Shown piece by piece: positions 11,198 to 29,647 of a stretch of DNA of 64,000 nt. Position numbers and translations under genes: made by a program. Below the pieces are notes generated by a model that had not been told where the DNA came from, searched no databases, and saw only the letters and a program-made list of their open reading frames with translations. Within the stretch, counting starts at the first letter, position 1. Each line of letters starts with the position of its first letter. The stretch comes from Candidatus Saganbacteria bacterium (GTDB taxonomy: Bacteria > Margulisbacteria > WOR-1 > XYC2-FULL-46-14 > XYC2-FULL-37-10): contig JACRPL010000006.1 of the NCBI GenBank assembly GCA_016223245.1, positions 21,417-85,416 on the forward strand, written 5' to 3'.

Positions 11198-11232
11198 TAT
11201 CGTGATTTATTCTAACATAAAATAATTTGTGC

Positions 11233-11270
11233 GTCAAAAAAACAAAGCTCCGATGTTGCGTCGGAGCCTT
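11233..11270 (-). terminator. Rho-independent terminator downstream of the lipoprotein gene.
   Basis: Minus-strand sequence GGCTCCGA-CGCAACA-TCGGAGCT forms a 7-8-bp GC-rich stem, followed by TTTGTTTTTTT. Confidence 0.5.
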
Positions 11271-11298
11271 ACATGACAAGAACAATGCTTATCTGCGG

Positions 11299-12399: not shown

Positions 12400-12409
12400 G
12401 TTCTTCTCC

Positions 12410-13057: not shown

Positions 13058-13138
13058 TAGATAACCACCTCTATTCGTTACAGCTTATAGATATTTTTTT
13101 TACTTGTCAAGCCGGAGTTTCAAAGTTATAATGCCTCC

Positions 13139-13460: not shown

Positions 13461-15281
13461 TTAATTAACAGTAAATGGCACTACATCCGTAATGATCTTG
13501 CCGGCTGTTGATTTTTCAGATGAAGCTGTTGCGCTTGTGATCAATTGTTCAACCACGTATGATGTATTGTTGGTCATGTCGTATACGTCAAAATACAGCA
13601 AACTCGACAACGGGTTAAAGTTAAAGCTGTAGATTATTACGCTTGATTTGCTCGATGTCATATCTACCGGGCTAGTTGAAACGCTTGTAAGGTCGTTGCG
13701 AAGTATCTTGCTTTCTCCGCCGTTGTTCGCTAGATAGATCAAATAATCCCCGTAAGCGCGGGCCTTATTGATCGTCCTGTATTTTGAGTGCCTGGAAAAT
13801 GCTTCGATGCTCGGCTCTCCGCTTGAGTTCACTATCCTGTAAATCCTGTCGCCCTTGACGGCCGATGTCCCCGAAGACCAGCTGTCCAATTTTAATATGG
13901 CGTATAATGATCCATTGTCAGCGAGGACCAATTGTTTTGCCCAGCCGAAATTGACCCCCTGAAGGCCGTTGGCTATTTTCCATTCGTTTTTTGTTGTGCC
14001 TGCCAAGTGCGCATTTACTTCAACGCTTATTTTATCGGCAATATTTGAAACCCAAGCGCCATGGACGGATTCGCCGGTACCGGTAATGTTCATCGCTTCA
14101 AATGTTAAACCGCCTAAGGTATCGGTGGTCGTTGAAAAATATTTTTCCCTGATGAAATTGCGTACAGTTTCTTCCGAAACTCCGCTTTCAAGGGACAGAG
14201 GAAGGGATGTGCCTCCCCAGCTATCCTGTTTGAAAAATCTTTTTTGCTCGGTCCCATCCCAGTAGCCATAAAGTATTTGGTTTGATATTGTCCTTGAATC
14301 GTCCCATGCGTTCGAATCATCATATAACGACTTGACCGACGTGATCTTCCCCGTCGTATCAAGCTTGACTTGTATGATGCCGGAATATTTCAAGAAATTG
14401 TCATTTTGGTCTTTTATCTGTAGATTTGTGCCGACCAATATAATGCTGTTATTGCTTGGCACATAATAGTATGACCTAAGCCATCCGGTGTAGCCGTCGT
14501 TATAGAAAATACTTTTGACCGAATTGTTGTAGATCAGGCGCAGCCATTCGATGCTCCAATTCCCGGCATCGGACCCGTGAAAAAGAACGAACCCGTTCGG
14601 GCAAACATAAAAATCCCTGACAGCCATCTGGCTGTTCCCGATCTGCGAAAGTACTCCTGCCGGCGTCTTTTTCTTGAGGACTGTTGTCCCGCCGCCCGAA
14701 CCCTGCGCGGTGCCGAGATAATAAAGGTTCCCGTCATTATCCCATTGTACTTGTTTTACAGGAAGATCACCATTGTTTGAATCCCCGTACCATGTGCCAA
14801 CGCCATTAAGGGTATCATCGACTGATTCAGTCGTGCCGGTTGGATATATCCTAAAGAAAGCTATTTGCCTTCCGCGGGATTCTGATGTTGAAGAGTCTTG
14901 GATCCAAACGCCCCATTGGAAACCGACGTAAAGCGAACCATCCGGGCTTTTTTCAATTACGGAAATTGGAGGGCGGGAACCAGACGGCAGATTCAATATT
15001 GATGAAAACTCTCCCGAAGCGGTTAATTTCAAAAGGTCAGTTACGTTGGCGACCAGCGCTTTAACGTCTTTTGCCAGGGCTAAACCGCTCGTTCCAGTTG
15101 ATGCGGCAGAAACAATCGCTTTAGCTCCTGAAACATCAAAAAGATTTGATACTTTAACGGAAGAAGATTGATCCCCTCCGCCGTATGAACCTTTTTGTTC
15201 GCCACAGCCAGCCACTAGCGTGGCAATGACCAATGACCAAATCCCAATGACCAACAAAGAATAGTAATAATTTTTTTTCAT
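13461..15281 (-). CDS. Large lipoprotein, 606 aa, Ser/Gly/Tyr/Trp-rich and probably beta-rich.
   Basis: MKKNYYYSLLVIGIWSLVIATLVAGCG with lipobox LVAGC. A GGAGG RBS lies upstream. The 5' end shares the AATGACC-repeat cassette with the lptD-like gene. Confidence 0.6.
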   Translation of the reverse strand: MKKNYYYSLLVIGIWSLVIATLVAGCGEQKGSYGGGDQSSSVKVSNLFDVSGAKAIVSAASTGTSGLALAKDVKALVANVTDLLKLTASGEFSSILNLPSGSRPPISVIEKSPDGSLYVGFQWGVWIQDSSTSESRGRQIAFFRIYPTGTTESVDDTLNGVGTWYGDSNNGDLPVKQVQWDNDGNLYYLGTAQGSGGGTTVLKKKTPAGVLSQIGNSQMAVRDFYVCPNGFVLFHGSDAGNWSIEWLRLIYNNSVKSIFYNDGYTGWLRSYYYVPSNNSIILVGTNLQIKDQNDNFLKYSGIIQVKLDTTGKITSVKSLYDDSNAWDDSRTISNQILYGYWDGTEQKRFFKQDSWGGTSLPLSLESGVSEETVRNFIREKYFSTTTDTLGGLTFEAMNITGTGESVHGAWVSNIADKISVEVNAHLAGTTKNEWKIANGLQGVNFGWAKQLVLADNGSLYAILKLDSWSSGTSAVKGDRIYRIVNSSGEPSIEAFSRHSKYRTINKARAYGDYLIYLANNGGESKILRNDLTSVSTSPVDMTSSKSSVIIYSFNFNPLSSLLYFDVYDMTNNTSYVVEQLITSATASSEKSTAGKIITDVVPFTVN

Positions 15282-15361
15282 ATTCTTACCTCCGTTAATA
15301 CATCCGATGGAATAATACTCATAGAATAATACTCATAGTATGTGAAATTGTCAAGGAAGAT

Positions 15362-15390
15362 TTGACTTTTTTTTGCGCGCTTGATAAAAT
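15362..15390 (+). promoter_or_regulatory. Sigma70-like promoter upstream of the htrA remnant.
   Basis: TTGACT, a 17-nt spacer, then TAAAAT. A GAAGGGAGAGG RBS follows before the TTG start at 15436. Confidence 0.3.
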
Positions 15391-15435
15391 AACCAACAAT
15401 TTACAAAAACATCAAGAAGGGAGAGGTGTATATTA

Positions 15436-16056
15436 TTGAAAATCAAAATTAAATTGTTATGCCTTTATTGCTTCATAATGCTAGTCCAAGCCCTTTCGCT
15501 TAATGTGGCGGCCGCTCCCGCAATCCTCGAGGAAAAAGTTCCGGGGCAGAACGGCTGCAATACTATTGCCGATGTCGTTGAAAAAGTTGGCAATGCCGTT
15601 GTAAATATTGACGTCGTTAAAATGCAAAAGACCAGGTTCATCAACCCCTTTTCTGGTTTTGTAAAAGATTTTGGCTTCGGGTTTGATTTCGATCCGCGCT
15701 TCAAGAATTTTTTTGAAGACAAGATCATACCCCAAAAAGGAGAAGTCATCGGCGTTAATGTTGCGATCGTCGCGCAAGCGCAAGGTATAGGCTTTGCTAT
15801 TCCAATTAATTCCGCAAAAGAGGTACTGCAAGACCTTAGGATTCGCCCGCTGCCCAAATGGGGTTTAAACAATACGATGTCATAAAACAAGTGAATGGGG
15901 AAAAGGTCAAAACTTCAGATGAGGTACAAAAGATCGTTTCACAGTTAAAGCCAAACAGTGAAAGAAATAAGTATGGTAATATACAGGGACGGAAAAAATT
16001 ATTCAATTAAGGGGAAATTAGGCGAAAGGCCCGAACAAGTCGACGAAAAGGAGTAA
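15436..16056 (+). pseudogene. Degraded HtrA/DegP-family serine protease remnant: internal deletion of the catalytic core plus frameshifts in the PDZ domain.
   Basis: Frame 1 carries the signal peptide, the protease-domain start ([14 protein letters not shown]) and, joined directly to it, the protease-domain end ([33 protein letters not shown]). The His/Asp/GDSGGP catalytic region is absent. The PDZ segments [27 protein letters not shown] and VIYRDGK...GKLGERPEQ continue in two other frames (15858-16010 and 15973-16056). Confidence 0.55.
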
Positions 16057-16061
16057 ACAAT

Positions 16062-17201
16062 ATGGCAGAATTCAGGCGCGCATACGGATTTGACGAGATA
16101 TCGCTTGCCCCGTCAATTATAACGATCAACCCGGATGATACGGATGTTTCGGTTGAGATCGGCAAAAAGAAGTTCCAGATCCCGATCATCGCTTCCGCGA
16201 TGGACGGAGTTATGAGCCCCAAAACTGCCGTCCTAATGAGCAAGCTTGGAGGATTGGGCGTTCTTAATCTCCAAGGCGTTTGGACGCGCTACGAAAACGC
16301 CGAAAAAGTATTGGAACAAATAGCTTCCGTCAGCCGCGAGGAATATGTCCCGCTAATGCAAAAACTTTATCTTGAACCGGTCAAAAAAGACCTTATCGGA
16401 AAAAGAATTAAGGAGATAAAAGCCGCCGGCGGGATCGCTGCGGTATCATCTATCCCGCAAGATGCCATCGAATTTGGTACTATCGCACGCGATGCAGGCG
16501 TTGATATTTTTGTCGTCCAATCGACCGTCCTTTCGACAAAACACAAATCAAAGACATCCGAGCCTTTGGACCTAAAAAAATTCTGCCATGAGATGAAAGT
16601 GCCGGTGATCGTCGGAAATTGTGTTACATACGAAGTAGCATTAACGCTTATGGGTACAGGTGTTGCGGCAGTTTTAGTCGGGATCGGGCCCGGCGCCGCC
16701 TGCACCTCGCGCGGGGTTTTAGGCGTCGGAGTGCCGATGGCCACGGCTATTGCCGATTGCGCCGCGGCGCGCGACGCTTACTATAAAGAGAACAATATTT
16801 ATATTCCAATCATCGCAGATGGCGGTATGGCAGTGTCGGGCGATATGTGCAAGGCTATAGCTTGCGGTGCGGATGCCGTTATGATCGGGTCACCGATCGC
16901 AAAAGCTTCCGAAGCTCCTGGCTGCGGATTCCATTGGGGCATGGCGACGCCGTCGCCTACACTTCCTCGAGGATCAAGGATAAAAGTCGGAACGATCGGT
17001 TCATTAAAAGAGATATTGCACGGCCCTGCAAAATTCGATGACGGATCGATGAATTTTATTGGAGCCCTTCGGACATCTATGGGAACATTGGGCGCAGTAA
17101 ACATCCGCGAGATGCAGCAAGTTGAGGTTGTGATCGCTCCTTCGATCTTAACCGAAGGAAAAGTTTACCAAAAAGCTCAGTCTCTTGGCATGTACAAATG
17201 A
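16062..17201 (+). CDS. IMP dehydrogenase family protein lacking the CBS subdomain.
   Basis: TIM-barrel IMPDH/GMPR motifs include the catalytic Cys loop VGIGPGAACTSR. At 379 aa there is no room for the CBS pair. AAGGAG RBS. Overlaps guaA by 4 nt. Confidence 0.8.
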   Translation: MAEFRRAYGFDEISLAPSIITINPDDTDVSVEIGKKKFQIPIIASAMDGVMSPKTAVLMSKLGGLGVLNLQGVWTRYENAEKVLEQIASVSREEYVPLMQKLYLEPVKKDLIGKRIKEIKAAGGIAAVSSIPQDAIEFGTIARDAGVDIFVVQSTVLSTKHKSKTSEPLDLKKFCHEMKVPVIVGNCVTYEVALTLMGTGVAAVLVGIGPGAACTSRGVLGVGVPMATAIADCAAARDAYYKENNIYIPIIADGGMAVSGDMCKAIACGADAVMIGSPIAKASEAPGCGFHWGMATPSPTLPRGSRIKVGTIGSLKEILHGPAKFDDGSMNFIGALRTSMGTLGAVNIREMQQVEVVIAPSILTEGKVYQKAQSLGMYK

Positions 17202-18748
17202 GTAAACACGATCTGATCGTTGTCCTCGATTTCGGCGCGCAATACTCGATGCTCATAGCCCGCCGCGTCCGCGAATGCAATGTATACTGCGAAATTCTCC
17301 CTTACAACACAACAGTTGAAGAGCTAAAAAAACGAAATGTTAAGGGTATTATCCTTTCCGGCGGCCCATCTTCCGTTTACGAGAAAAACGCCCCCCATCC
17401 TGATCCAAACATTTTCAAAAGCGGCATACCGATCTTAGGTATATGTTATGGCGTACAGCTAATCGGAAAAGCTTTTGGCGGTGAAGTAAAAGAAGGATCG
17501 ATCAAAGAATACGGGAAAACACAATTAACGATCAATGATGAAGTAAATCTTTTTGCGGGGCTTCCGAACGAGATACAAACTTGGATGAGCCATGGCGATT
17601 CGGTTGTAAAGTTGCCTGATGGTTTTGTAGGCTTAGGACATACGGAGCACACTCAAAATGCGGCGATCGGCGACCATACAAGAAAAATATACGGCGTCCA
17701 ATTCCATCCTGAAGTTGTCCATACGCCGCAAGGCTTCGAAATAATAAAAAATTTCGTATATATTGTATCCGATTGCAAACCGACATGGACTACCGCTAAT
17801 TTCATTGACCAATCCGTAAAAGAGATACAGGCGACACTTGGTAAAGAAAGAATTTTATGCGCGCTGTCGGGCGGCGTTGATTCAACAACGGTTGCGGCTC
17901 TTGTCCACAAAGCCGTTGGCGAACAATTGACTTGCATGTTCATCGATCAAGGGTTTATGCGAAAGAACGAAGCCAAAAAGATCGAAGAGTTATTTACCTC
18001 AAAATTTAAGATCCATTTCATCCACATTAATGCATCAGAACGATTCTATGAGAAATTAAAAGGGATTTCGGACCCAGAAGAAAAACGCCATCGAATTGGC
18101 AACGAATTCATTCGTGTATTCGAAGAAGAAGCAAAAAAACTTGGACATCTACCATATTTGGCGCAAGGAACGCTTTACCCTGATGTTATTGAATCAGCGG
18201 TACCCGGACTTTCTGCTACGACCGCAGTTCGAATTAAAACGCATCATAATGTCGGCGGATTGCCAAAAGATATCAAATTTAAACTAATAGAGCCATTAAA
18301 GAAGCTATTTAAAGATGAAGTTAGAGCGCTTGGCCGCGATCTTGGAGTTCCGGATGAAATAATATCCCGCCAGCCATTCCCTGGCCCTGGCCTTGCGATA
18401 AGGATTATTGGCGAGGTTACAAAAGAAAGAGTTAAGATATTGCAAGATGTTGACGATATAGTCGTTTCTGAGATCAAAGCCGCCGGATATTATAAAAAAG
18501 TTTGGCAATCTTTTGGCGTTTTGCTTCCTATTAGAACAGTTGGGGTTATGGGTGATAAGCGTACTTATTTGAACACAGTTGCTATCCGATCGGTCACATC
18601 TACCGATGCAATGACGGCCGATTGGTCAAAATTGCCATATGAACTTCTTGAAAAGATGTCTAGCAGGATCATTAATGAATGCCCTGAAATTAACCGCGTA
18701 GTTTACGATATTTCCTCAAAACCGCCTTCGACTATCGAGTGGGAATAG
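17198..18748 (+). CDS. guaA: GMP synthase (glutamine-hydrolysing).
   Basis: Class I GATase with the catalytic Cys in GICYGVQ, followed by an ATP pyrophosphatase domain carrying the PP-loop SGGVDS. 516 aa. Confidence 0.95.
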   Translation: MSKHDLIVVLDFGAQYSMLIARRVRECNVYCEILPYNTTVEELKKRNVKGIILSGGPSSVYEKNAPHPDPNIFKSGIPILGICYGVQLIGKAFGGEVKEGSIKEYGKTQLTINDEVNLFAGLPNEIQTWMSHGDSVVKLPDGFVGLGHTEHTQNAAIGDHTRKIYGVQFHPEVVHTPQGFEIIKNFVYIVSDCKPTWTTANFIDQSVKEIQATLGKERILCALSGGVDSTTVAALVHKAVGEQLTCMFIDQGFMRKNEAKKIEELFTSKFKIHFIHINASERFYEKLKGISDPEEKRHRIGNEFIRVFEEEAKKLGHLPYLAQGTLYPDVIESAVPGLSATTAVRIKTHHNVGGLPKDIKFKLIEPLKKLFKDEVRALGRDLGVPDEIISRQPFPGPGLAIRIIGEVTKERVKILQDVDDIVVSEIKAAGYYKKVWQSFGVLLPIRTVGVMGDKRTYLNTVAIRSVTSTDAMTADWSKLPYELLEKMSSRIINECPEINRVVYDISSKPPSTIEWE

Positions 18749-18787
18749 ACTGCAAGTTTTTGCCTAAATAGCTCGATAGTTATTTAG

Positions 18788-21700
18788 ATGGCAGAAGTAT
18801 CACTAGACCCAATAACACATCAAAAGTCACCAAAGCCTGTTGTTTCGGGGCCAACGCCTGCATCGTCACAACCAGGAAGGGTAAAACAACCTCCTGCTCC
18901 AACGACAGCTCCGGCCCATGAATCCGCAAAAACATTAAAAGCTCGTCAAGCTCAACTCGACATTGAATCTGTTTCTGCTGATGAACAGGCTTTTATCACT
19001 TTGCTTGGGATAACAAAAGTGGAATTTCGGGAAATAAAAGCGATATGCAATCTTAAACAAACGGATAGGTTAACTTTTCTGCTTTCGAAAGTTAAGGGGG
19101 CAAAAAGCGGGTCTGCGGCTGTAAAAAAAGCCAAACAAAATATCAAAAAATACGAACAATGTCAAAAATATAAAGAAGCGATCCTTTCCACATTAAAGGT
19201 CCAACAGCCGGAACTATTCAAAACCTTTGAAAGCTATCAAAATAAGATTTTGGCCCGAGCATTTGCGGAAACCTTAGCCCTTTTTAGGGATGAACGAGTA
19301 TTTAAGGAATATTATGAAATATTGAACAAATATCACATAATAGATCCCTTGGCAATTGGCAGAAAAGATATAGGTAAAATGACGATTTACGAAGAGACAA
19401 TCTTTTTTCAGAGAACAGAAACAATGAGAGGATATTCGATCTCAAATATGTATTTTGAAGAAGCCCAGAGATATTTGAACATTCAAGAACAGATCCGGGC
19501 CAAAACAAATAAATATTTCTTGCAAATAATAAAGTCAAATAAATTTGGGAAAAAATTGGCCGCTATCCATAATAGAGAAACAGAAGCTATGGCGCAATTA
19601 TGGCCAAAAGATGATCTTAACCTTGAATTGACTGGACTGACAAATAAAGCCCAAAGCCTAATAAATAAATACCGTAAAATAGCTAAAGAGCTTGAAGCCG
19701 CGATCAAAACGCCGGATATTAAAGACGATGAAATGGCCAAAGCGAAATTGTCGGGGATCATCGATGAATTGCTGGCGGAAATTGGAATTGAATATAAGGC
19801 TGCTTATGTTGAAACCCCCTCAAATCCAGAAAAACAGGCTTTAAAATCATTGCTCCATATCACCGCACAATTGAAGATATTGGATAAAAAGATAATATAT
19901 TATGCCAGATTAAGCAATCCCGCCCTATCGCAGAATGAAAGGGATCTGATCGAACAGGTTAAAGGTCTATCCGAGAAAGGGATATTATTTTCGAAAGCGC
20001 CTACTGAAGCCGGAGCTTTCAAAAAATATACTTTGGCTGCATGGCTTGCGACCTATCCAAAAGAAGTACAACTTATTCTGGAAATATATGTCCGATCAAC
20101 GAAAGATTTCTTAAGGCAGATTAAAGATAATATGCCTTTGATAGGTACGGGAAAGGATAAAAGTGAGGCATTGTATTTTACCTTGCTGGCTTCGGGATTT
20201 TCCGAAAAAGAATTATTGGCGTTCGATGCCATGGCGGCGCTTGAAAGCCTCGCTGATGACGACAAGAAGGTTTTAATAGGAACAAATGAAGGGCAAATAG
20301 GAAATTGTTTAAAAGAGCTTAAGAAAACATATGATCTAATGTTATCCAGCAAGTATATAACATTAAGTCCTAAAGAAAGAGCCGCTATAAATGCTAAATA
20401 TTGTCAATTAACAAGCCTTTTATTTGGGCTTGTCGGCTCTTATCAGCGAGCAAGTTATCTGATGGAAATATCTGTTTATATGCGCAAAACCGGTGTTCAT
20501 ATTCCCGGAAAAACCCATGAGATTGAAAATTCTCCAGAAACACACGATGACCTTATTTATCACCAAGGCTTGTTGAGATTCATTAAGGCTTCTGCCGAAC
20601 AATTTGGCGTTGACCCATGGAATCTTATTGCCACTCATTTAACCGTCAGGAAAATTACCGGCGAGCCGATCGACCAAAAATATGTGGATGAGATATTGAA
20701 ACATTCATCTTTGCAAGGTTTGATCGATTTAGACGGCCAATATAATTTAGACGAGCTTAAAAAGAAATTCATTTCAGCTTTTGTTTATAAAGGGCTGGAA
20801 TCATCTTTAGCCATCCAAACTAATTATGAGGCATCGAAAGCTAAAATATTCGCATGGCTGCAAAAATATGTAGGACAAATAAGATCGGAAATATCAAAGG
20901 ATCCTCGATATGCCGGGCTCAATGAAATGGAAAATAAGCTTAGGATACTGAACCAAATATTCAGGTTTTTGTTGGAAACAAAGGTAGTGTCAAACAACGA
21001 ATTGGATATTTTTATCAAGAAAAATCCTTATGCTGAGCTAAAGATCGGGTTGGAAATGCAAAACTTGAGATCGAAGGAGGTATTCTTTACTATGGGGTAT
21101 GAGAGTCTGCCAAAAGAGGTAAAGGATGCGGTTGAAAAACACGGATTTACCGCTTTTTGCAAGGATTATGCAGCTCTCTTGGATATCTATTGGGTCCCTA
21201 ATGACAAGAAAACTTTATTTTTAGGATACACTTTTTTGGGGAAAGGCCCAATTGTCTTAACATATAAACAATCTAATTTTTTGAACAAAATAATTGACAT
21301 ATTAGTCCACGAATTAAGGCATAAAGCGGATAACGATGACTTTGAAAAATATTGCCTGGCAAACCCTAACTATAAAAAACCTTTTGATGATATCCCTATT
21401 ATGCTGACAGAACGAAATGCTGATATCCTTTCATTGGCTGTTTGTGAAGGCATCAAGCCAAGAACCTTGGCCTTAAAAAAGGAAATAGCAGAAATAAGGC
21501 GAAGAGTTGAAATATCCAATGTTTTGTTGGGGCTAAACCCGGGAGACAGGCAAATTTTAAAGCCGCCTTATAATGGGATAAAGATAGAAATGCAATCATT
21601 GTCGATCGCGCCATCGCAGATACCTTTAGAAGTGAAAGATCTTCATGCAATAAAATCAGTTTTAATTAATATGGGTTATACCGCCAAAGAACAGGGATTT

Positions 21701-21961
21701 TTGATAGATACTTGTGTTGCAGTCATTTCATCCGGTTGGATCGATCTTTCAACCCTAAATGTTCCCGGCCAAAGGAATATATTCATTGATTTTATTGAAA
21801 AATTGGTTGGGGATAAGCGAAGCAAAGGATATTATACAGATGAATTTGAGAGTCACTTAGCTCACTCGAAAAAAACAATAAATAGTAAAGTAAAAACCCC
21901 CATTGTTACATCTCAAGAGCTTAAACGGTTGATCTATAAGACGCTGCCTCTCGCCTTCTGA
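18788..21961 (+). CDS. Large hypothetical protein, 1057 aa, with a Pro/Ala-rich N-terminus, extensive Lys/Glu-rich helical regions and a single HExxH motif. Putative zincin-like domain.
   Basis: A continuous ORF. No signal peptide. HELRH lies within ...IIDILVHELRHKADNDDFEKY at about residue 850. No other recognisable domain. Confidence 0.6.
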   Translation: MAEVSLDPITHQKSPKPVVSGPTPASSQPGRVKQPPAPTTAPAHESAKTLKARQAQLDIESVSADEQAFITLLGITKVEFREIKAICNLKQTDRLTFLLSKVKGAKSGSAAVKKAKQNIKKYEQCQKYKEAILSTLKVQQPELFKTFESYQNKILARAFAETLALFRDERVFKEYYEILNKYHIIDPLAIGRKDIGKMTIYEETIFFQRTETMRGYSISNMYFEEAQRYLNIQEQIRAKTNKYFLQIIKSNKFGKKLAAIHNRETEAMAQLWPKDDLNLELTGLTNKAQSLINKYRKIAKELEAAIKTPDIKDDEMAKAKLSGIIDELLAEIGIEYKAAYVETPSNPEKQALKSLLHITAQLKILDKKIIYYARLSNPALSQNERDLIEQVKGLSEKGILFSKAPTEAGAFKKYTLAAWLATYPKEVQLILEIYVRSTKDFLRQIKDNMPLIGTGKDKSEALYFTLLASGFSEKELLAFDAMAALESLADDDKKVLIGTNEGQIGNCLKELKKTYDLMLSSKYITLSPKERAAINAKYCQLTSLLFGLVGSYQRASYLMEISVYMRKTGVHIPGKTHEIENSPETHDDLIYHQGLLRFIKASAEQFGVDPWNLIATHLTVRKITGEPIDQKYVDEILKHSSLQGLIDLDGQYNLDELKKKFISAFVYKGLESSLAIQTNYEASKAKIFAWLQKYVGQIRSEISKDPRYAGLNEMENKLRILNQIFRFLLETKVVSNNELDIFIKKNPYAELKIGLEMQNLRSKEVFFTMGYESLPKEVKDAVEKHGFTAFCKDYAALLDIYWVPNDKKTLFLGYTFLGKGPIVLTYKQSNFLNKIIDILVHELRHKADNDDFEKYCLANPNYKKPFDDIPIMLTERNADILSLAVCEGIKPRTLALKKEIAEIRRRVEISNVLLGLNPGDRQILKPPYNGIKIEMQSLSIAPSQIPLEVKDLHAIKSVLINMGYTAKEQGFLIDTCVAVISSGWIDLSTLNVPGQRNIFIDFIEKLVGDKRSKGYYTDEFESHLAHSKKTINSKVKTPIVTSQELKRLIYKTLPLAF

Positions 21962-22947
21962 TGCTCTTTCCATGAAGAAGAAAATATATGCGAGCCGTCT
22001 TTACGTGCTACAAAATATATATAATTCGTGTTCGCGGGATAAATAGCCGCCTTAAATGACGCAAGCCCCGGATTGCATATCGGCGTTGGAGTTAGCCCCA
22101 TGTTTTTATAGGTATTATACGGCGATCGGATTTGGAGCTGTTTTAAATATACATGCTTTGTCGGATTTTCTAATATATATTTGATCGTAGGATCTGAAGC
22201 CAACGGCATTTTCATCTTCATTCTATTATAAAAAACAGATGAGATGATTGGCCTCTCTGCATCAAGTCTTGCTTCTTTTTCAATAATTGACGCTAGGATC
22301 AAAGTGTTGTAGAAGGAAAACGTACTGTTCTTTCCATTTTCTTTCCAGTAAAACCAGAGCATTACATTAAAACGTTTAAGCATCATATTGGCAAGGACTT
22401 CGGTTGAAGTTGTTTTTTCTATTATGTAAGTATCCGGGAATAAATAGCCTTCGAAAGAATAGCTATTATTGGCTTTTAGAAAATCATATTTTAGAGCTAG
22501 TGATAAAGATAAAGGCGTGTTGGTAAGCTTTCTGAATTCTTCGAAGTGAAGAAATCCGGTCTTTTGAAGGATGCTTCCCATTTTATAGATCGAAGTCCCT
22601 TCAGGAAATGTAACCTTAATTGGATTGGGCGAGTTAGTGTCGCCGCGCCTTAGTTTTATCAGTGTTGAAACAAGCGTTCCATGAGGATTAAACGTGTATT
22701 CGCCTGATTGTATCTTGTTTTGCATATTGAGCGAGAATGCCGCAAGCTTAAAAAATAAGCTATTTTCAATAACCTTATTGGATGCAAGCATATTCGCTAT
22801 CTCATTTGCGCTTGTCCCCTGGTTTATGGATATCGAGACCAGTAGATCGTTCTTGCCGGTTTGGATAAAGATGGAAAAAAAAGACAGAATAACAAGTATC
22901 AATAATAATATTGGCAAAAGAACGAGTATTTTTTTCATTTCCTGCAT
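21934..22947 (-). CDS. mltG: Endolytic murein transglycosylase MltG (YceG-like).
   Basis: N-terminal TM helix plus a YceG-like domain (...SGEYTF...TFPEGTSIYKMGSIL...). Sits immediately downstream of ruvX. Confidence 0.75.
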   Translation of the reverse strand: MQEMKKILVLLPILLLILVILSFFSIFIQTGKNDLLVSISINQGTSANEIANMLASNKVIENSLFFKLAAFSLNMQNKIQSGEYTFNPHGTLVSTLIKLRRGDTNSPNPIKVTFPEGTSIYKMGSILQKTGFLHFEEFRKLTNTPLSLSLALKYDFLKANNSYSFEGYLFPDTYIIEKTTSTEVLANMMLKRFNVMLWFYWKENGKNSTFSFYNTLILASIIEKEARLDAERPIISSVFYNRMKMKMPLASDPTIKYILENPTKHVYLKQLQIRSPYNTYKNMGLTPTPICNPGLASFKAAIYPANTNYIYFVARKDGSHIFSSSWKEHQKARGSVL

Positions 22948-23330
22948 TCCATATAATTCTGCAAAATAAGCGCCGCGGCCGTCTTATCAATAAACTTGCG
23001 CCTTTTTTTCTCGGAAACACCAGCTTCGTCAAACATCCTATTGGCTTGAGATGAAGTCAACCTTTCATCCCATGTAACAATTGGAATAGTAACCGATTTT
23101 TTCAATTCTTCAATAAATTCCAACACTTTTTGGGCAGAGTGCCCTATCTCGCCTCTCATGGTTTTGGGAAGACCTACTACGATCTCGGATATGTCATCAT
23201 ATTGTTTGATCGTATTTTTAACTTCGTCAATATTTGAGACCACTGCTATTCCTTGAGCGGTTAACCCGAGAGGGTCGCTTATCGCAATGCCTATTCGAAC
23301 TTCACCGTAATCGATACCCATGGTCCTCAT
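22935..23330 (-). CDS. ruvX: Putative pre-16S rRNA nuclease / Holliday-junction resolvase-like YqgF.
   Basis: MGIDYGEVRIGIAISD RNase H-like motif. The start was moved to the internal Met (MRTMGIDYG), which abuts the alaS stop. Confidence 0.85.
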   Translation of the reverse strand: MRTMGIDYGEVRIGIAISDPLGLTAQGIAVVSNIDEVKNTIKQYDDISEIVVGLPKTMRGEIGHSAQKVLEFIEELKKSVTIPIVTWDERLTSSQANRMFDEAGVSEKKRRKFIDKTAAALILQNYMECRK

Positions 23331-25987
23331 ATTAATTCTATTGCCTTCTTCAGAGCTTCCTCGATCCTTGAAATATCGCGCCCACCCGCTTCGGCCTTGT
23401 TCGGCCGCCCGCCGCCGCCGCCGCCGCAAGTTTCGGCTAGTACTTTTGCAAGCTTGCCCGCATGATAGCCTTTTTTCACTAGATCATCCGTTACGATCAC
23501 CAAGAACGATATTTTATCGGATATTGTTGATGCAAGGATTATTATTCCCGATCTAAGCGAATCACGGAGTTTGTCGCCCATAATTCGCATATTATCAACC
23601 GGAACCTCTATTAACGATGCCTTAAGGACGACGATATCTTTTATCTTTTCAGTTTGTGATAGGAGAGAGTCGGCTTCTAATAAGGATTTTTTTGCTTCAA
23701 GATCGTCAATTTCTTTTTGGATGTTCTTGTTCCTCTCTCTTGCCCATTCAAGCCTTCCCTCAAGATGCTCAAGGAATTTGTTTACGCGGATCGAGTCTTT
23801 TTCATCAACTGCTTGGCCCAGGGTGTTTAATTCGGTGGGGTCAACTTCAAAAATGCCTTCATCAAGGAAAGCTCCGCCGCCAAGCAACTGCTTTTTTGCC
23901 TGAAGTATTGCGTGGTGGCGCATAAGATCATCGATCTGAATATGGAGATCTTTTGCCTTGTAAACTATGGCAGCTTTGGACAGATCTCCTGCAATTGCTT
24001 CAATTCTCCTTACTCCCGATTGTAAGGCTTCCTCTTTTATGATCTTGAAAAAAACGATATCTTTAGTATTATCAACATGACAGCCGCCGCAAAGCTCAAG
24101 GCTTAAATCGCCTATCTTTACTACCCTAACTTTGTCGCCATATTTTTCGGAAAATAAAGCCATCGCACCGAGTTTTTTTGCTTCATTGAGGTTTGTTTCA
24201 AATTTTTCGACTTTAATGGCCTTTTTAATATTCTCATTAACGATCCTCTCAACTTCAGCTGTTTCTTGTTTTGTCATCGCACGATTGAAGCTAAAATCGA
24301 AGCGCAAACGGTCAGGGCCAACGTACGATCCCGCTTGTTTTGCCATATCGCCCAAGGTTTTTCTCAAAGCCGCATGAAGCAGATGAGTTCCAGTGTGGTG
24401 GGCCATTATATTTTTTCTTTTACTTTCATCTACCTTGGCATGAACATGGTCCCCGATCTTTAAGCGATCTATATTATCGAGACGATGAAGGATCACTCCG
24501 CCAATTTCGCCGTATGTTCCAATAACAATGCTTTCGTTTATGATCCCGGTATCTCCAATTTGGCCTCCGCCCTCCGGATAAAATGGCGTCTTATCGAGAA
24601 TTACGATGTTCTCGTCAGGAATGATCTCCAATATCTTTGCGTCGGACTCAAGTTTGTCGTAACCCACAAAATTTGTTTTACCGTGTTTTTCTTCGAAAGT
24701 ATTCTTTAATCTTAAGATCGAATCCTCAAGTTTAAAGGCTCCTGCCCTTGCGCGTTCTCTTTGTTCTCCCATTAAATTTTCGAATTCAGCTTTGTTGATC
24801 GAATACCCTCTTTCAATCGCGAACTCTTCGGTTATTTCATATGGGAAGCCAAAAGTATCATGAAGTTTAAAAACATCGATTCCGGCAAGCTTTTTGTCGG
24901 TAGCATGCTTTGCAAATAGTTCTTCCAGTAATTTCATGCCTGATTCAAGTGTATTATTGAAACCGATCTCTTCAGATCTGATAGTCTCTTCGATTATTTT
25001 TGATTGGGTTGCAAGTTCAGGATAAGTTCCCTTTCCTTGTTCGATAACTGTCCTTGATAATTCCGATAAGAAGGGCATTTGCATCTTTAATTTTCTTCCG
25101 TTTAGTATCGCTCGCCTGATAATTCTTCGTAGAACATAGCCTCGCCCTTCATTTGACGGCAATACTGAATCGGAGATCAAATATGTCATCGCGCGCAAAT
25201 GGTCGGCAATTATTTTGCTGGAAGCGCTTCTATCGGGAAGTTTTTCAAAGATCGGAGTGAATAAATCCGTATCGAAATTATCTGTTTTTCCCTGCAGAAC
25301 TCTCGATATCCTCTCAAGCCCCATACCGGTATCAATATTCTTCTTTGGGAGAGGTTTTAACTCTCCGGCCTCGTTGCGATTATATTGAATGAACACAAGA
25401 TTCCATATCTCCAGGAATCTCTCGCAATCACAAGCAGGATTGCAGTCGGGCTTATCGCATTTGACGCCGGAGTCATAATATATTTCAGAACAAGGTCCAC
25501 AAGGACCTGTAGGCCCTGCTGACCAAAAATTGTTTTCCTCATCAAGCCTATAGATCTTTTCTTTGGGTATTCCTATTTTTTTATTCCAAATATCATAGGC
25601 TTCATCATCTTTTTCATAGATCGCGATGACGAGTTTTTCTTTTTCGATCTTGTAGGCTTCGGTTAAAAGCTCCCAAGCGTATGCTATCGCATCTTCTTTG
25701 AAATAATCGCCGAAAGAAAAATTCCCAAGCATCTCAAAGAATGTATGATGCCTGGTCGTCTTCCCGACATGTCCTATGTCGTTCATGCGTATGCATTTTT
25801 GTACGGTTGTAACGCGTTTATATTTTGGGGATTCGGTTCCCAAGAATATCGGCTTGAACGGAAGCATTCCCGCTAAAGTTAATAAAACTGTCGGGTCAGA
25901 CGGGATTAGCGAAGCGGAAGGCTGGCGCTTATGCCCCTTTTTCTCGAAGAATTCTAAGAATTGTTCTCTAATTTCAGAACTTTTCAT
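23327..25987 (-). CDS. alaS: Alanine--tRNA ligase.
   Basis: Class II core motifs, the editing-domain HxxxH...CGGCH zinc motif, and a C-terminal GGGGGGRP glycine motif. 886 aa. Confidence 0.95.
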   Translation of the reverse strand: MKSSEIREQFLEFFEKKGHKRQPSASLIPSDPTVLLTLAGMLPFKPIFLGTESPKYKRVTTVQKCIRMNDIGHVGKTTRHHTFFEMLGNFSFGDYFKEDAIAYAWELLTEAYKIEKEKLVIAIYEKDDEAYDIWNKKIGIPKEKIYRLDEENNFWSAGPTGPCGPCSEIYYDSGVKCDKPDCNPACDCERFLEIWNLVFIQYNRNEAGELKPLPKKNIDTGMGLERISRVLQGKTDNFDTDLFTPIFEKLPDRSASSKIIADHLRAMTYLISDSVLPSNEGRGYVLRRIIRRAILNGRKLKMQMPFLSELSRTVIEQGKGTYPELATQSKIIEETIRSEEIGFNNTLESGMKLLEELFAKHATDKKLAGIDVFKLHDTFGFPYEITEEFAIERGYSINKAEFENLMGEQRERARAGAFKLEDSILRLKNTFEEKHGKTNFVGYDKLESDAKILEIIPDENIVILDKTPFYPEGGGQIGDTGIINESIVIGTYGEIGGVILHRLDNIDRLKIGDHVHAKVDESKRKNIMAHHTGTHLLHAALRKTLGDMAKQAGSYVGPDRLRFDFSFNRAMTKQETAEVERIVNENIKKAIKVEKFETNLNEAKKLGAMALFSEKYGDKVRVVKIGDLSLELCGGCHVDNTKDIVFFKIIKEEALQSGVRRIEAIAGDLSKAAIVYKAKDLHIQIDDLMRHHAILQAKKQLLGGGAFLDEGIFEVDPTELNTLGQAVDEKDSIRVNKFLEHLEGRLEWARERNKNIQKEIDDLEAKKSLLEADSLLSQTEKIKDIVVLKASLIEVPVDNMRIMGDKLRDSLRSGIIILASTISDKISFLVIVTDDLVKKGYHAGKLAKVLAETCGGGGGGRPNKAEAGGRDISRIEEALKKAIELI

Positions 25988-26002
25988 AATTATTTACTTG
26001 AA

Positions 26003-26059
26003 CAAACTAACCTGCGAGTAAACCCTGCCTGCCGGTAGGCACGGCTCGCGGTTAGTTTG
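26003..26059. repeat. GC-rich palindromic repeat element, copy 1, intergenic between tmk and alaS.
   Basis: CAAACTAACC-TGCGAGTAAACCCTGCCTGCCGGTAGGCACGGCTCGC-GGTTAGTTTG: 10-bp terminal inverted repeats around a near-palindromic GC-rich core. It lies 16 bp upstream of the alaS start codon. Confidence 0.6.
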
Positions 26060-26078
26060 AATTTCATAACCACGGCGT

Positions 26079-26690
26079 TTAGCCGCTGGTAGAAAAATAT
26101 TTCTCAATCTCCTCCCTAATTCTATTTTGTACATCTTCAACCGGCATCGTACTATTAATGACCTTAACTCTTTTTTTATCGTTTTGGGCGATCTCCAAAT
26201 ATTTATCCCTGACCCTTTCATGAAAGGCGACGATCTCTTTTTCAAATCGGTCGATATTCCCTCTTTCTTTCGCCCTCTTGAGGCCAACTTCGACCGGAAC
26301 ATCGAGCAGGATAGTAATATCGGGAACTAGTCCGCGGCTCGCTACCCAATTTACATATCTTACCAAATCTTCTGGAAGGCCGCGGCCCCCCAATTGGTAT
26401 GCCAGAGTTGAATCCATATACCTATCGCAGATAATTGTTTTCTTTTTATCTAGCGCCGGTTTAATTATTTTTTCAACATGCTCTACCCTGTCTGCCGCGA
26501 AAAGGAAAATTTCCGACAGTATTTCCGGCTCTTTTTCCAATAAGATCTTTCTTAATTCCATTCCAAGCGATGTTCCGCCTGGTTCTTTGGTTATCACGAC
26601 ATCTTGGCCTTTAGATGCAAGGTATTTTGATAATAATTCGATCTGTGTTGTTTTTCCGCAGCCTTCCCCGCCTTCAAAAGAGATGAACAT
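26079..26690 (-). CDS. tmk: Thymidylate kinase.
   Basis: P-loop FISFEGGEGCGKTT, DRY-type motif and a LID region. 203 aa. Confidence 0.93.
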   Translation of the reverse strand: MFISFEGGEGCGKTTQIELLSKYLASKGQDVVITKEPGGTSLGMELRKILLEKEPEILSEIFLFAADRVEHVEKIIKPALDKKKTIICDRYMDSTLAYQLGGRGLPEDLVRYVNWVASRGLVPDITILLDVPVEVGLKRAKERGNIDRFEKEIVAFHERVRDKYLEIAQNDKKRVKVINSTMPVEDVQNRIREEIEKYFSTSG

Positions 26691-26698
26691 GTTCCCTC

Positions 26699-28258
26699 CT
26701 AGTTTATGCCGAAGTTGAAATTAAATTCATTCCTCATTACACGATATGCAAAAGTTATATTGAAGCAATGGATCCCGATGCGGACAAGATAATCGAATTC
26801 TCGGGGACTTAAATCCGGTAAATTATATAAAACGTTGATACCGTATTTGCTTCCATCATTTCCTGCCATAAATCCCGCATTTATTTGGTTTGAAGCTGTA
26901 AAGCGATACATTTCATAAGTAAACGGGCTTGTTCCTCTATTTAGGATGAAAGTCCTAAATCCCACACCGGTTGATAAGAATGGGGACCATGTCTTGTACA
27001 ATTCAAGGCCGCCAACGGTTTTTAGCCAACGGGTCCCGTTGCCGCCTTGCCTGCCGGCAGGCAGGTAGAAAGAATGGTCGTTATCCAAAATAACCTTTAT
27101 TATGCCGATTTGAAGGTCGAGAAGCGATGCCGAAACGCCAAGTTTTGCGTTTGAATAAGTTTGTGATGCCCCAGATGATTCTTCGGAAATAAACCCGAGA
27201 GAGAGAGATCCTGACATATCAAATTTATCATATGCCCATTTTTTAAGCGACAAAGATAAAAGCGGGAACTGGCTTACCCTTTCATAATTTATCCTTTCAT
27301 TTAATGCCATTTTGGACGAAAGCTCGAATTGTTTAACAGTATCAATGTTAAATAATTTTAGGGCGAACGGCCCATCGCTCTTTACTTCATTGCCAAAAAG
27401 ATAATTATGGGCAAATATGACAGAGATCGGGTCTTTCGAATCCCCGGATATTTTGAAATTTCCGCTGTTTTGGGCGTCTTTAATATAATTAAGGTCTAAT
27501 CCGGCCCCAAGATATTTCTTCGCAGCATAGTTTACCGCGATATTTCCGCTCAAGCTCCTGCTTACATGCCAAGGCAAGCTTTGGGAAATATAAGCTCCAT
27601 CAAGATCGTTTGATCCAAAAACCGGATAAGGCATTTGGTGGGCCAAACCTTTTTCTTCGGCTTTAAGGTCGTATATATAGACTGGTACCGGTGTCGTAGC
27701 TACGCCGTCCAGCCAAAACCTGGCCCAATAACAAATAAGCCATCCGTCCTTGGGATATAAAATAATATTATCGGCCTGAAAATGATAATGCGGTGTAAAT
27801 AGATCGCAAGTCGTGAATTCCGCATTTTTTAGGTCAATTTTGTCCTCGTCCATCTTAACTAGGTCTCCAGTCAGCGTAACATTTTTGTAGAGCAATTTTA
27901 CTTTATTTGCAGCACCGATCCTTGTGTTTAGATTGAAATCTAATACATCTCCCGAAAAATAAAGGCCTTGATATAGAAGTTTGAAGCCCGCATCCGTTTT
28001 AATATTCTTGTCCGCCGTAAAATATAAGAATTTTTCGCCAGATGCCTTGAGGTCTTTATATGTTACCTCGACTGATCCTATCGCTTCGACATATTTCCCG
28101 TCATCGGAATAATTGAGCGTTTGGGCGTTGATCGAGAGATCCTTGTCTTGGGCAAAGACTTGCGTTGATAATATAATAAGCAAAATGACCAATGACCAAT
28201 GACCAATGACCAACAAGGAATAGATTATAGAATAAATACATTGTTGGGATTTGGTCAT
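26699..28258 (-). CDS. LptD/OstA-like outer-membrane LPS-assembly protein.
   Basis: Signal peptide, then an OstA-like N-terminal domain (...LNYSDDGKYVEAIGSVEVTYKDLKASGEKFLYF...) and a beta-rich C-terminus. 519 aa is short for LptD. Confidence 0.55.
   Translation of the reverse strand: MTKSQQCIYSIIYSLLVIGHWSLVILLIILSTQVFAQDKDLSINAQTLNYSDDGKYVEAIGSVEVTYKDLKASGEKFLYFTADKNIKTDAGFKLLYQGLYFSGDVLDFNLNTRIGAANKVKLLYKNVTLTGDLVKMDEDKIDLKNAEFTTCDLFTPHYHFQADNIILYPKDGWLICYWARFWLDGVATTPVPVYIYDLKAEEKGLAHQMPYPVFGSNDLDGAYISQSLPWHVSRSLSGNIAVNYAAKKYLGAGLDLNYIKDAQNSGNFKISGDSKDPISVIFAHNYLFGNEVKSDGPFALKLFNIDTVKQFELSSKMALNERINYERVSQFPLLSLSLKKWAYDKFDMSGSLSLGFISEESSGASQTYSNAKLGVSASLLDLQIGIIKVILDNDHSFYLPAGRQGGNGTRWLKTVGGLELYKTWSPFLSTGVGFRTFILNRGTSPFTYEMYRFTASNQINAGFMAGNDGSKYGINVLYNLPDLSPREFDYLVRIGIHCFNITFAYRVMRNEFNFNFGIN
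27048..27063. repeat. Core palindrome TGCCTGCCGGCAGGCA, copy 3, in-frame within the lptD-like gene.
   Basis: A perfect 16-bp palindrome identical to the core of the element in mutS. It encodes LPAGR in ...FYLPAGRQGGNG.... Confidence 0.5.
28184..28211. repeat. AATGACC heptanucleotide tandem repeat, four copies, encoding the Trp-rich signal-peptide core of the lptD-like gene.
   Basis: Read directly from the sequence: aatgacc x4. On the minus strand it translates to LVIGHWSLVI. Its inverted copy TTGGTCATTGG lies at 28251-28261, spanning the start codon. Confidence 0.7.
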
Positions 28259-28270
28259 TGGGATTTACTG

Positions 28271-29647
28271 CTAGCCAACTTCTTCATAGCGGCTTTCTTT
28301 ATTGCAGAATTTGGCAATGTCTTTGCGGAAGACCAATTCGACAGTGCCGACAGGGCCGTTCCTTTGTTTCGCGATAATAATTTCGGCTATATTCCCGCGT
28401 TCTGATTGTGGATTGTAATAATCGTCCCTATGGATGAACATTACAAGGTCAGCCGTTTGTTCAATTTCTCCCGATTCCCTAAGGTCCGATAGCCTTGGTA
28501 TCCTATCGTTTCGCTGTTCAACCGCCCTTGAAAGTTGCGACAGTGCAATTACGGGAAGATCAAGTTCGCGTGCAAGGGTCTTAAGCGACCGTGAGATTTC
28601 CGAAATTTCCTGCACCCTGTTTTCGATCCTGCCCCTGCCAGACATAAGCTGCAAGTAATCGATCATGACCATTCCAAGCCCTTTTTCAAGTTTGAGCCTT
28701 CTGCATTTTGCCCTTATTTCCATTGCGGTGATCGAAGCCGAATCGTCAATGTATATCTGGGCTTCGGAGAGTTTTGACAAGGCGCGCGTCAACTTCTTCC
28801 AACCGGTATCAGGGAGTGTTGCTGTTTTAAGCTTTATTGCGTCGATCTCCGCCTCTGAACACAGCATTCTTTGGGCAAGCTGGTCTTTGCTCATTTCAAG
28901 CGAGAAGATCGCGACAGGTATCTTGAATTTTATTGCCATATTTTGGGCCATGTTCAATGCAAATGCGGTTTTTCCAACCGACGGCCTTGCCGCGATAATT
29001 ATTAGGTCGGAATTCTGGAACCCGGCTGTCAGATTGTCAAGATCGGTATAGCCTGTTGGAATGCCTGTAATGTGCTCTTTTTTCCCGTATAGCCTGTCGA
29101 TCCTGTCTAAAACTTTTGTCAAAATCGAATCTAACTTGTGGAATCCTTCTTTTGTCCGTTTTAATGCGATATCGAAGATCGTTTTTTCTGCATGGTCCAA
29201 TATACTGTCAACATTGTCCGGTTCATCGAACGCTTCCGATACAATATACGTTCCGGCATCGATCAATCGCCTCAATGTCGCTTTTTCTTCAACGATCCGC
29301 GCGTAATATTCGATATTTGCGGCTGTCGGGACGGAATTAATAAGGTCCGCAATATAACCGGATCCTCCAGAAGAGTCAAGCTTGTTGCTTTTCCGAAGGC
29401 TTTCGCCCACAGTGACAAGGTCTACAGGTTCGCCTCGGTCAAACAGGTCGAGGATCGTTTCGTAAATATATTTGTGCGCATCGCGGTAAAAGCTGTCCGC
29501 GTGCAGGATCTCGATTGCTTTTACAATCGCGGCCTTGTCAATCAATAACGATCCAATTACTGATTGTTCTGCTTGCAGGTTTTGCGGTGGAATTCTTTCT
29601 TCGGCCATGAGATGTAAATTATAACATATGTTGACATTGATTTCCAA
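28271..29647 (-). CDS. dnaB: Replicative DNA helicase DnaB.
   Basis: N-terminal DnaB domain and a RecA-like domain with Walker A ARPSVGKT and Walker B MVMIDYLQLM. 458 aa. Confidence 0.95.
   Translation of the reverse strand: MEINVNICYNLHLMAEERIPPQNLQAEQSVIGSLLIDKAAIVKAIEILHADSFYRDAHKYIYETILDLFDRGEPVDLVTVGESLRKSNKLDSSGGSGYIADLINSVPTAANIEYYARIVEEKATLRRLIDAGTYIVSEAFDEPDNVDSILDHAEKTIFDIALKRTKEGFHKLDSILTKVLDRIDRLYGKKEHITGIPTGYTDLDNLTAGFQNSDLIIIAARPSVGKTAFALNMAQNMAIKFKIPVAIFSLEMSKDQLAQRMLCSEAEIDAIKLKTATLPDTGWKKLTRALSKLSEAQIYIDDSASITAMEIRAKCRRLKLEKGLGMVMIDYLQLMSGRGRIENRVQEISEISRSLKTLARELDLPVIALSQLSRAVEQRNDRIPRLSDLRESGEIEQTADLVMFIHRDDYYNPQSERGNIAEIIIAKQRNGPVGTVELVFRKDIAKFCNKESRYEEVG

Follow-up and report, generated by a model that had tools for sequence, protein, structure and literature searches.

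A dispersed palindromic heptamer repeat as the probable source of a signal-peptide core shared by two unrelated envelope genes of Candidatus Saganbacteria

Introduction

Heptanucleotide tandem repeats are known from cyanobacteria, in which they were described as STRR sequences (Mazel et al. 1990, as cited in PMC4692102). Repeats of GGGAATC/GGGGATT occur in Xanthomonas and Nostoc (PMC4692102), and repeats of TAACTGA, for which one array orientation is translatable, occur in Beggiatoaceae, cyanobacteria, and Bacteroidetes (PMC4679880). The published heptameric repeats are described as intergenic, with a role that is either unknown or regulatory (PMC4692102, PMC4679880). The present study concerns an element built from the heptamers TTGGTCA and TTGGGAT (AATGACC and AAATCCC on the opposite strand), which is found at the 5' coding ends of two envelope genes, here termed gene A and gene B, in a 64-kb window of a Candidatus Saganbacteria metagenome-assembled genome (MAG; contig JACRPL010000006.1); approximately 7 kb more of the same genome was also covered. 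We consider it probable (roughly 0.68) that the cassette shared by the two genes is a dispersed heptamer repeat element that was absorbed into the 5' coding ends of envelope genes, and we regard the origin of the feature as largely explained.

The window arrays resemble the described heptameric repeats in their tandem 7-nt units, their dispersed occurrence, their occasional arrangement as inverted stem-loop pairs, their patchy spread across phyla, and the lack of a known vehicle. The unit TTGGTCA is the same as that in arrays of cyanobacteria and other phyla, and TT(G/T)GTCA is presumably the STRR2 unit, although a literature search for STRR units gave nothing relevant. The window arrays differ from the described repeats in that they are short (3 to 4 units), combine units of two kinds in an invariable order, and code for the signal-peptide cores of bona fide genes. 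As in STRR-type repeats, the three arrays that Tandem Repeats Finder detects in the window consist of head-to-tail 7-nt units; on the other hand, all three lie within 5' coding regions and not in intergenic DNA. We know of no report of heptamer repeats in Margulisbacteria, and the arrays described here extend heptamer repeats of the cyanobacterial type to this sister lineage.

Three other systems are comparable. Rickettsia palindromic elements (RPEs), or intragenic miniature inverted-repeat transposable elements, lie in frame inside unrelated genes, where the repeat-encoded peptide is tolerated (PMC10969869). The window element is likewise a dispersed palindromic repeat that stands in frame in a gene whose orthologues lack the insert, and the window also has a palindrome in mutS. 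RPEs are approximately 150 bp in length, have no short tandem units, and insert at enzyme surface loops, whereas the window element is heptamer-built, 40 to 85 nt long, and located in signal peptides, and it replaces the start codon of gene B; no terminal inverted repeat with a target-site duplication, i.e., the signature of RPE-like insertion, was seen for it. In the opa genes of Neisseria, CTCTT repeats in the leader-peptide coding region are present in many units and switch at approximately 1e-3 per generation (PMC3960869). The window arrays are similar in being non-triplet repeats of a leader-peptide region that encode hydrophobic residues and have alternative starts upstream, whereas they contain at most four units and come from a palindromic family whose copies in other organisms are non-coding. 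In Haemophilus lic1, CAAT repeats are accompanied by alternative ATGs. Finally, the family members in other phyla are, like the REP/BIME, ERIC, and Correia-type repeats, intergenic long imperfect hairpins that are AT-richer than their own genomes, but they differ from these repeats in having a stem of phased heptamers that is near-invariant across phyla, with no transposase found nearby and no Rfam family match.

Results and Discussion

A heptamer cassette in two unrelated envelope genes

The two genes and the parts of the element are as follows (coordinates refer to the window).
13461 to 15281, minus strand: gene A, encoding a 606-aa lipoprotein conserved in Margulisbacteria/Saganbacteria (100% match to NCBI HZC34_01970, encoded on a 229-kb contig of a Candidatus Saganbacteria MAG)
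15225 to 15264, minus strand: cassette copy A, codons 6 to 19 of gene A (YSLLVIGIWSLVI), corresponding to the right arm of the element without its partner
26699 to 28258, minus strand: gene B, encoding a 519-aa protein of an OstA/LptD-LptA-like outer-membrane protein family of Margulisbacteria, assigned by remote similarity
28184 to 28266, no strand: the whole palindromic heptamer element in the ancestral signal-peptide region of gene B, an outer-stem-only member of the hairpin family
28184 to 28216, minus strand: right arm, mRNA TTGTT(GGTCATT)4 with four perfect units, encoding LLVIGHWSLVI (codons 15 to 25)
28217 to 28240, minus strand: AT-rich loop, partly self-complementary, encoding C-I-Y-S-I-I-Y-S
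28241 to 28266, plus strand: left arm, TTGTTGGGATTTGGTCATTGGGATTT on the plus strand and AAAUCCCAAUGACCAAAUCCCAACAA in the mRNA, which contains the start codon (28256-28258) and codes for a polar n-region, MTKSQQ

The heptamer AATGACC occurs 24 times in the window, as compared with an expected 8.5 +/- 2.8, and none of 100 shuffled sequences reached 24. Four copies stand in tandem at 28184-28211, single copies start at 15225, 15232, and 15246, so that three of the four phased positions of 15225-15252 are occupied, and one reverse copy occupies 28253-28259. The window contains 12 occurrences of the phase-locked pattern TTGGnnnTTGGnnnTTGG, for which 0.45 would be expected (approximately 27-fold). 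Tandem Repeats Finder reports period-7 arrays at 28184-28213 (4.3 copies, 100% matches) and 15224-15254 (4.4 copies, 75% matches) and a degenerate AAATCCA array at 12342-12390 (7.3 copies, 72% matches). The genes concerned are all encoded on the minus strand, and each copy is read in the TTGGTCA orientation on the sense strand of its gene. The heptamer structure proposed in the first-pass annotation is thus well founded. The annotation had also described a stretch of ~39 nt with ~92% identity at the two 5' ends, which was measured here as a 40-nt direct repeat (15225-15264 and 28184-28223) with 90% identity (36/40 nt), the second-best repeat of the window. This repeat takes in 12 nt beyond the run of heptamers (sense-strand sequence, CTATTCYTTGTT). 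The sense strand of cassette A reads CTATTCTTTGTTGG TCA TTGG GAT TTGG TCA TTGG TCA TT.

Translation of the two genes confirms that the repeat is read as the hydrophobic core of both signal peptides. Gene A has the Shine-Dalgarno (SD) sequence GGAGGT, an n-region of MKKNYYY, the repeat-encoded h-region, and the lipobox LVAG/C (a slash marks the cleavage point); its translation begins MKKNYYYSLLVIGIWSLVIATLVAGC and reads MKKNYYYSLLVIGIWSLVIATLVAG/C from the N-terminus to the cleavage point. The N-terminus of gene B is MTKSQQCIYSIIYSLLVIGHWSLVILLIILSTQVFA/QDKDL..., with the predicted cleavage just before the conserved QDKDL. The peptides contain one tryptophan each, and the earlier term Trp-rich is therefore too strong. 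BLASTP of the gene A protein against the gene B protein found no similarity apart from the repeat-encoded segment, in agreement with the earlier statement that the two envelope genes are unrelated. The designation of gene B as lptD-like is acceptable in the sense of a remote similarity, since distant LptD proteins align at E ~1e-4, but a firm assignment is not, since there was no Pfam match; some sources name the family LptA. The sharing of the cassette is real and far beyond chance.

A hairpin family in other bacteria

Species-representative genomes were scanned with the degenerate pattern TTGGKMWx3, and the matches listed are mostly cyanobacterial arrays. Among them, (TTGGTCA)n arrays with n of at least 3 were found in Anabaena cylindrica (L001), Nostoc (L069), and Microcoleus (L051), and also in Mucilaginibacter (L004), Lewinellaceae (L012), Pirellulales (L008), and Polyangiaceae (L049). 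Mixed inverted arrays of TTGGTCA and TTGGGAT are present among the listed matches in MAGs of Pirellulaceae, Chloroflexota, and Deltaproteobacteria. The (TTGGTCA)n arrays and their relatives are widespread. Metagenomes were scanned with the pattern TTGTTGGKMWTTGGKMWTTGG, which is anchored on the TTGTTGG junction; the counts are lower bounds and are biased by the pattern. The commonest class was TTGTTGGTCATTGGGATTTGG, which is the same as the gene A sequence (23 of the 120 loci listed), and an inverted arm lies within 130 nt in 19 of these 23; the listed loci with pure arrays of TAA, GCA, or TCT units have no inverted arm.

The three window arms have exact matches of up to 34, 36, and 31 nt, respectively, among the listed metagenome loci, on contigs of 40-67% GC. 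The 34-nt match covers 15225-15258 of cassette A and is to intergenic hairpin arms on five unrelated contigs (L140, L182, L184, L204, and L214); the conserved arm sequence of the hairpin family, TTTGTTGGTCATTGGGATTTGGTCATT(GGTCATT), is present at the same positions. The right arm of gene B matches L157 exactly over 36 nt and L226 over 33 nt, and the left arm matches L227 exactly over 31 nt and L146 over 27 nt. Shorter shared stretches were found among the listed matches in MAGs of Pirellulaceae, Chloroflexota, and Deltaproteobacteria. These matches bear on the proposal, given as a fallback in the first-pass annotation, that the signal peptides are alike only through common codons for W, I, L, and V. 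Signal peptides are indeed compositionally biased, and the closest orthologue of gene A also has a low-complexity h-region (CTTTTATTCTTTTTATTC...). However, 36 of 40 nt are shared, including a non-repeat flank, the heptamer-phase pattern is approximately 27-fold above expectation, and exact identity over 31-36 nt to non-coding DNA of unrelated phyla goes beyond codon choice. Coincidental codon usage is thereby effectively refuted.

The settings of the elements elsewhere are unrelated and mostly intergenic, e.g., just 3' of murG in L182. Arrays of other genomes that fall inside mechanically called open reading frames (ORFs) were mostly upstream of the real gene starts where inspected. A 209-aa ORF of L137, which is preceded by an SD sequence, is an independent coding case; its signal peptide, MKMKKCIILFLLGFGIWSLGFEKANA/FS, is encoded by the array TTGTTGGGATTTGGGATTTGGTCATTGGGATTTG. 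On the metagenome contig L211 (GC 0.40), five copies of the element, two of them in tandem, lie within approximately 3 kb (~10078-13145), and the family can therefore be locally dense.

Ten aligned metagenome elements gave the consensus AATGACCAATGACCAAGCCCCAATGACCAACAAATGACC...loop...GGTCATTTGTTGGTCATTGGGATTTGGTCATT. The alignment folds into a 41-bp hairpin of -49.6 kcal/mol, in which the outer stem is nearly invariant and contains conserved G-U pairs (9/10 at one pair), with a covariation term of ~0. The full-length element is approximately 136 nt long and comprises the 41-bp stem, an inner stem, and a GC-rich loop. A covariance model, R1, was built from these 10 metagenome elements only, i.e., without the window sequence. 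R1 found the gene B element at 28189-28269 on the plus strand (35.3 bits, E 3.9e-7) and at 28188-28268 on the minus strand (30.1 bits), and nothing else in the window below E = 1. The gene B element has the inverted arms of phased heptamers with the CAACAA/TTGTTG junction, as well as the R1 match, and it is therefore a member of the palindromic hairpin family. Compared with the full-length element, the gene B copy retains the outer stem only, with a 24-nt AT-rich loop in place of 79 model positions. R1 also matches the dnaB-gene B junction of L121, an orthologous locus with 54% identity (33 bits, E 3.2e-6), the cut-short gene A arm at the end of L122 (1-33; 26 bits), and the five copies on the unrelated contig L211. 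Either the element at the start of gene B is older than the divergence from L121, or this site is targeted recurrently.

Rfam 15 at the gathering score gave no match in the window or in 16 family loci, a BLAST search of plasmids with the full element gave two marginal partial matches, and a literature search for the sequence strings found no paper with the element sequence. Four matches were obtained in viral contigs, none of the TTGGTCA/TTGGGAT type, and phages are therefore no evident carrier. The puzzle that remains is a heptamer-built sequence of 26-34 nt that is identical across several phyla with GC contents from 38% to 69%, for which no function, carrier, or curated family is known. Two candidate functions were rejected: an element-encoded small protein is ruled out by the TGA stops in the left arm and by nucleotide-level conservation across very different GC contents, and for an intrinsic terminator, a simple scan finds none and the loop is too long.

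Orthologous genes and the origin of the shared core

All 28 orthologues of gene A that were compared have the lipobox, and their signal peptides are ordinary, with unrelated h-regions. As judged from these orthologues, the signal peptide of gene A has been replaced and not lengthened. The 20 orthologues of gene B keep the mature N-terminus AQ(D/E)KDL(T/V)INA, and their signal peptides are short, ordinary, and mutually unrelated. In the closest orthologue of gene A (L248, 4001-4070; 67% identity), the signal peptide (LLFFLFFSFLL) likewise comes from a low-complexity pseudo-repeat (CTTTTATTCTTTTTATTCTTTTCTTTCC), and slippage-prone h-regions may be common in this lineage. At gene B, the comparison involves two further features.
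28255 to 28287, minus strand: ancestral-start relic, in which the ATG at 28285-28287 within the end of dnaB opens only MKKLASSKSQ* and the TGA overlaps the present ATG as ATGA
28271 to 29608, minus strand: dnaB, whose stop codon precedes the ATG of gene B by 12 nt; the order dnaB-gene B-tmk is kept in relatives

In the loci L126, L127, and P0002, the ATG of gene B lies inside the last dnaB codons (TATGAAGAAGTxGGxTAA) and is followed directly by a short signal peptide. In comparison with L126, the window has approximately 68 extra nt between the relic and the conserved signal-peptide tail LLIILSTQVFA, and these form the imperfect palindrome 28184-28266. The gene B frame is open from the new ATG through the conserved mature N-terminus, and the element is missing from the orthologous ORF of L126. 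Since the orthologues of both genes keep the cleavage-site or lipobox context but have unrelated signals, the shared segment is not an inherited protein module. These unrelated orthologue signals, together with the identical strings in non-coding hairpins, lead to the conclusion that what genes A and B share is a dispersed DNA repeat family. For the same reasons, the designation signal-peptide cassette, in the sense of a dedicated module, does not hold; the identical strings elsewhere are mostly non-coding hairpins.

(TTGGTCA)n reads LVIGHWS and (TTGGGAT)n reads LGFGIWD in every frame, without stops and with mean hydropathy values between +0.8 and +1.0. On the complement of TTGGTCA, all three frames contain a TGA. 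When the units follow one another as TCA-GAT-TCA-TCA, the frame used by gene A gives LLVIGIWSLVI, which has no charged residue. Because it is open and hydrophobic in all three frames, the T-rich strand is translatable as a signal-peptide core.

In the origin proposed here, an element with TTGGTCA and TTGGGAT units and a TTGTTGG junction exists as an intergenic palindromic hairpin in many phyla, and a copy that came to lie at the start of an exported protein would be read as a hydrophobic signal-peptide core. In gene B, the whole palindrome stands at the place that the middle of the short signal takes up in orthologues. The old dnaB-overlapping ATG is now out of frame; the complementary arm provides the new ATG (AATGACC read as ATG ACC) and the polar n-region, and the other arm the h-region. 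In gene A, a lone arm forms the h-region of a lipoprotein signal that is otherwise of normal length. The repeat-encoded peptides would probably act as export signals, and the element probably came by insertion or recombination and not by growth in place. Such a history would represent a route to new export signals, in which a non-coding repeat that is hydrophobic in every frame is captured as a signal core or overwrites one, and unrelated envelope proteins thereby appear to have a common module. It also advises caution in annotation, i.e., similar N-termini need not imply shared ancestry or a shared sorting pathway, and such repeats also break assemblies and shorten gene calls.

Several points weigh against the absorption of a dispersed element. 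Both scans were seeded with our own patterns, the class frequencies are samples, and 21 nt of each shared string were imposed by the query. No recurrent neighbour gene (transposase or RAYT) was found among 33 loci, and no target-site duplication is visible at the borders of 28184-28266 and 15225-15264. The evidence for multiple copies in this genome consists of the three arrays in 64 kb and of breaks in the Logan contigs. For gene A, the signal peptide is no longer than in orthologues, and a simple insertion therefore does not explain it; slippage in place from a chance seed and gene conversion from another copy are equally possible for this gene. In addition, the gene order near gene A differs in the closest relative, and the join across cassette A is supported by the NCBI assembly alone.

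The last two points would also fit chimeric joins, produced by an assembler that jumped between repeat copies within the genome or across organisms. The Logan contigs of SRR12113407, which represent the same population (99.97-100% identity), break exactly at each cassette copy. Such breaks would be expected if strings of 30 nt or more also occurred at other loci or in other organisms of the sample, and they too would be compatible with an assembly artefact. However, both joins are in frame and lead from the start codon (and from the SD sequence in gene A) to the mature protein, with the cleavage site or lipobox at the normal distance. The dnaB-gene B-tmk order is shared with relatives, the GC content is even across the joins, and a 30-nt array is far shorter than a read. 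We consider an artefact very improbable.

The hairpin at the start of gene B

The first-pass annotation had placed an inverted copy over the gene B start codon and suggested that it could pair with the repeat. Both statements agree with the present analysis. The perfect arms CCAATGACCAA (28203-28213) and TTGGTCATTGG (28251-28261) lie in a 31-nt palindrome with 77% complementarity (28196-28226 / 28231-28261), and the start codon at 28256-28258 is part of the stem. The left arm reads AAAUCCC-AAUGACC-AAAUCCC-AACAA on the mRNA. A 121-nt RNA segment at the start of gene B is predicted to fold with -29.4 kcal/mol (z = -2.7; 2/200 shuffles equal it), and the AUG is located within a perfect helix of 11 bp that stacks on one of 7 bp. 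That the initiation region is sequestered, as the annotation suggested, is plausible on the basis of this model. It does not apply to the cassette in general, since the inverted-repeat analysis of the window found no inverted partner arm for cassette A. Upstream of gene A lies a promoter-like site.
15326 to 15354, minus strand: promoter-like site of gene A, TTGACA-17-TATTAT, 11/12 matches

With this site and without an inverted arm, gene A is a stand-alone unit that has no hairpin over its start. A perfect 14-nt tandem duplication (GAATAATACTCATA x2.1, 15310-15338) overlaps the -10 hexamer of gene A, and TATTAT is thus present twice.

The buried AUG would allow the hairpin to act as a regulatory RNA structure, such that gene B is translated only when ribosomes that end dnaB or the 10-codon relic ORF melt the stem. 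Consistent with this, gene B has no SD sequence at its AUG, whereas genes A and C have GGAGG-type SD sequences; the dnaB stop codon is close upstream, and the relic ORF ends with ATGA on the start codon, an overlap that could permit termination-reinitiation. The orthologue starts are all dnaB-coupled, and L121 retains a hairpin at the same junction with four pairs changed on both sides (in a two-sequence alignment). The conserved G-U pairs of the family stem likewise suggest an RNA-level structure. On the other hand, two of the four orthologous loci with DNA have no hairpin, the z-scores of the folds, -2.7 and -1.8, are modest, the conservation of the family stem is one of sequence, with almost no covariation, gene A lacks the partner arm, and a palindrome folds by construction with or without a function. 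As the principal explanation, RNA regulation is possible but rather doubtful; it is compatible with absorption of the dispersed repeat as an added function. The hairpin of gene B probably just coexists with dnaB-coupled translation.

In a more far-reaching version, the palindrome AATGACC/AAATCCC would be a sequence-specific cross-phylum module, recognised by a protein or self-propagating, and would serve as a portable cassette of start codon and export signal whose hairpin gates gene B, possibly with copy-number switching. If this were true, the portable cassette would create or replace signal peptides of Saganbacteria envelope proteins. We regard this version as unlikely.

Switching by copy number has its own precedent in contingency loci, in which non-triplet arrays would switch envelope proteins via slipped-strand mispairing in the manner of Neisseria opa. 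The perfect 4.3-unit array of a 7-nt unit lies in the 5' coding region of gene B, in accordance with opa-type loci in both its non-triplet unit and its location, and surface or envelope genes are the usual targets. The ATG at 28239-28241 in the loop region is out of frame at present, and by frame arithmetic it would come into frame with three repeat units; the loss of one unit would give MYLFYNLFLVGHWSLVILLIILSTQVFA, an arrangement that recalls multi-start loci. The right arm consists of four uniform TCA units, whereas the left arm is GAT-TCA-GAT, and this homogenisation of the right arm points to past slippage; unit numbers also vary widely across family members. However, gene B has only four units, gene A has two adjacent identical units in an array interrupted by GAT, and the known phase-variable repeats are usually longer. 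The third frame is shut by TGA and TAA, and an LptD-like protein is an odd gene to turn off. The Logan contigs likewise have four units in gene B, which is weak evidence because they come from the same population. The small number of units and the kind of protein that gene B encodes make phase variation the less likely reading, and we regard it as quite improbable.

Other repeats and neighbouring genes

The first-pass annotation had also noted a related repeat behind the signal peptide of a third lipoprotein (11299-12399), and this is correct, although the array is degenerate.
12342 to 12392, minus strand: degenerate GGGATTT-type array (7.3 copies, 72% matches), encoding the h-region FGILIWILVFGFGI of the lipoprotein 11299-12399

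A heptamer run of another composition, (AACCTCC)3.4, lies at 5482-5505 in a phosphoglucomutase-like gene, and its other strand keeps the TTGGnnn phase (TTGGACGTTGGAAGTTGG).

A second repeat family consists of an imperfect palindrome of 50 nt that is GC-rich and has CCTGCCTGCCGGCAGGCAGG as its core. It is present at 26009-26058 and 31607-31656; the core alone occurs at 27044-27065. One of these copies lies between alaS and tmk, one is in frame in mutS (..NREPCLPAGRVHSQV..), and the core alone lies in gene B (..LPAGRQG..). At the loop with the mutS copy, the protein is approximately 10 residues longer than MutS proteins of solved structure. The Logan contigs stop exactly at the palindrome copies of this family.

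Among the neighbouring genes, a 149-aa ORF at 15436-15885 (plus strand) has the N- and C-terminal motifs of an HtrA-type serine protease domain, with the middle apparently absent, and may be an internally deleted gene. The region 36157-38607 (plus strand) encodes an 816-aa secreted protein with Ig-like domains, the C-terminal domain of which is of the CHU_C / type IX secretion type (E 6e-9).

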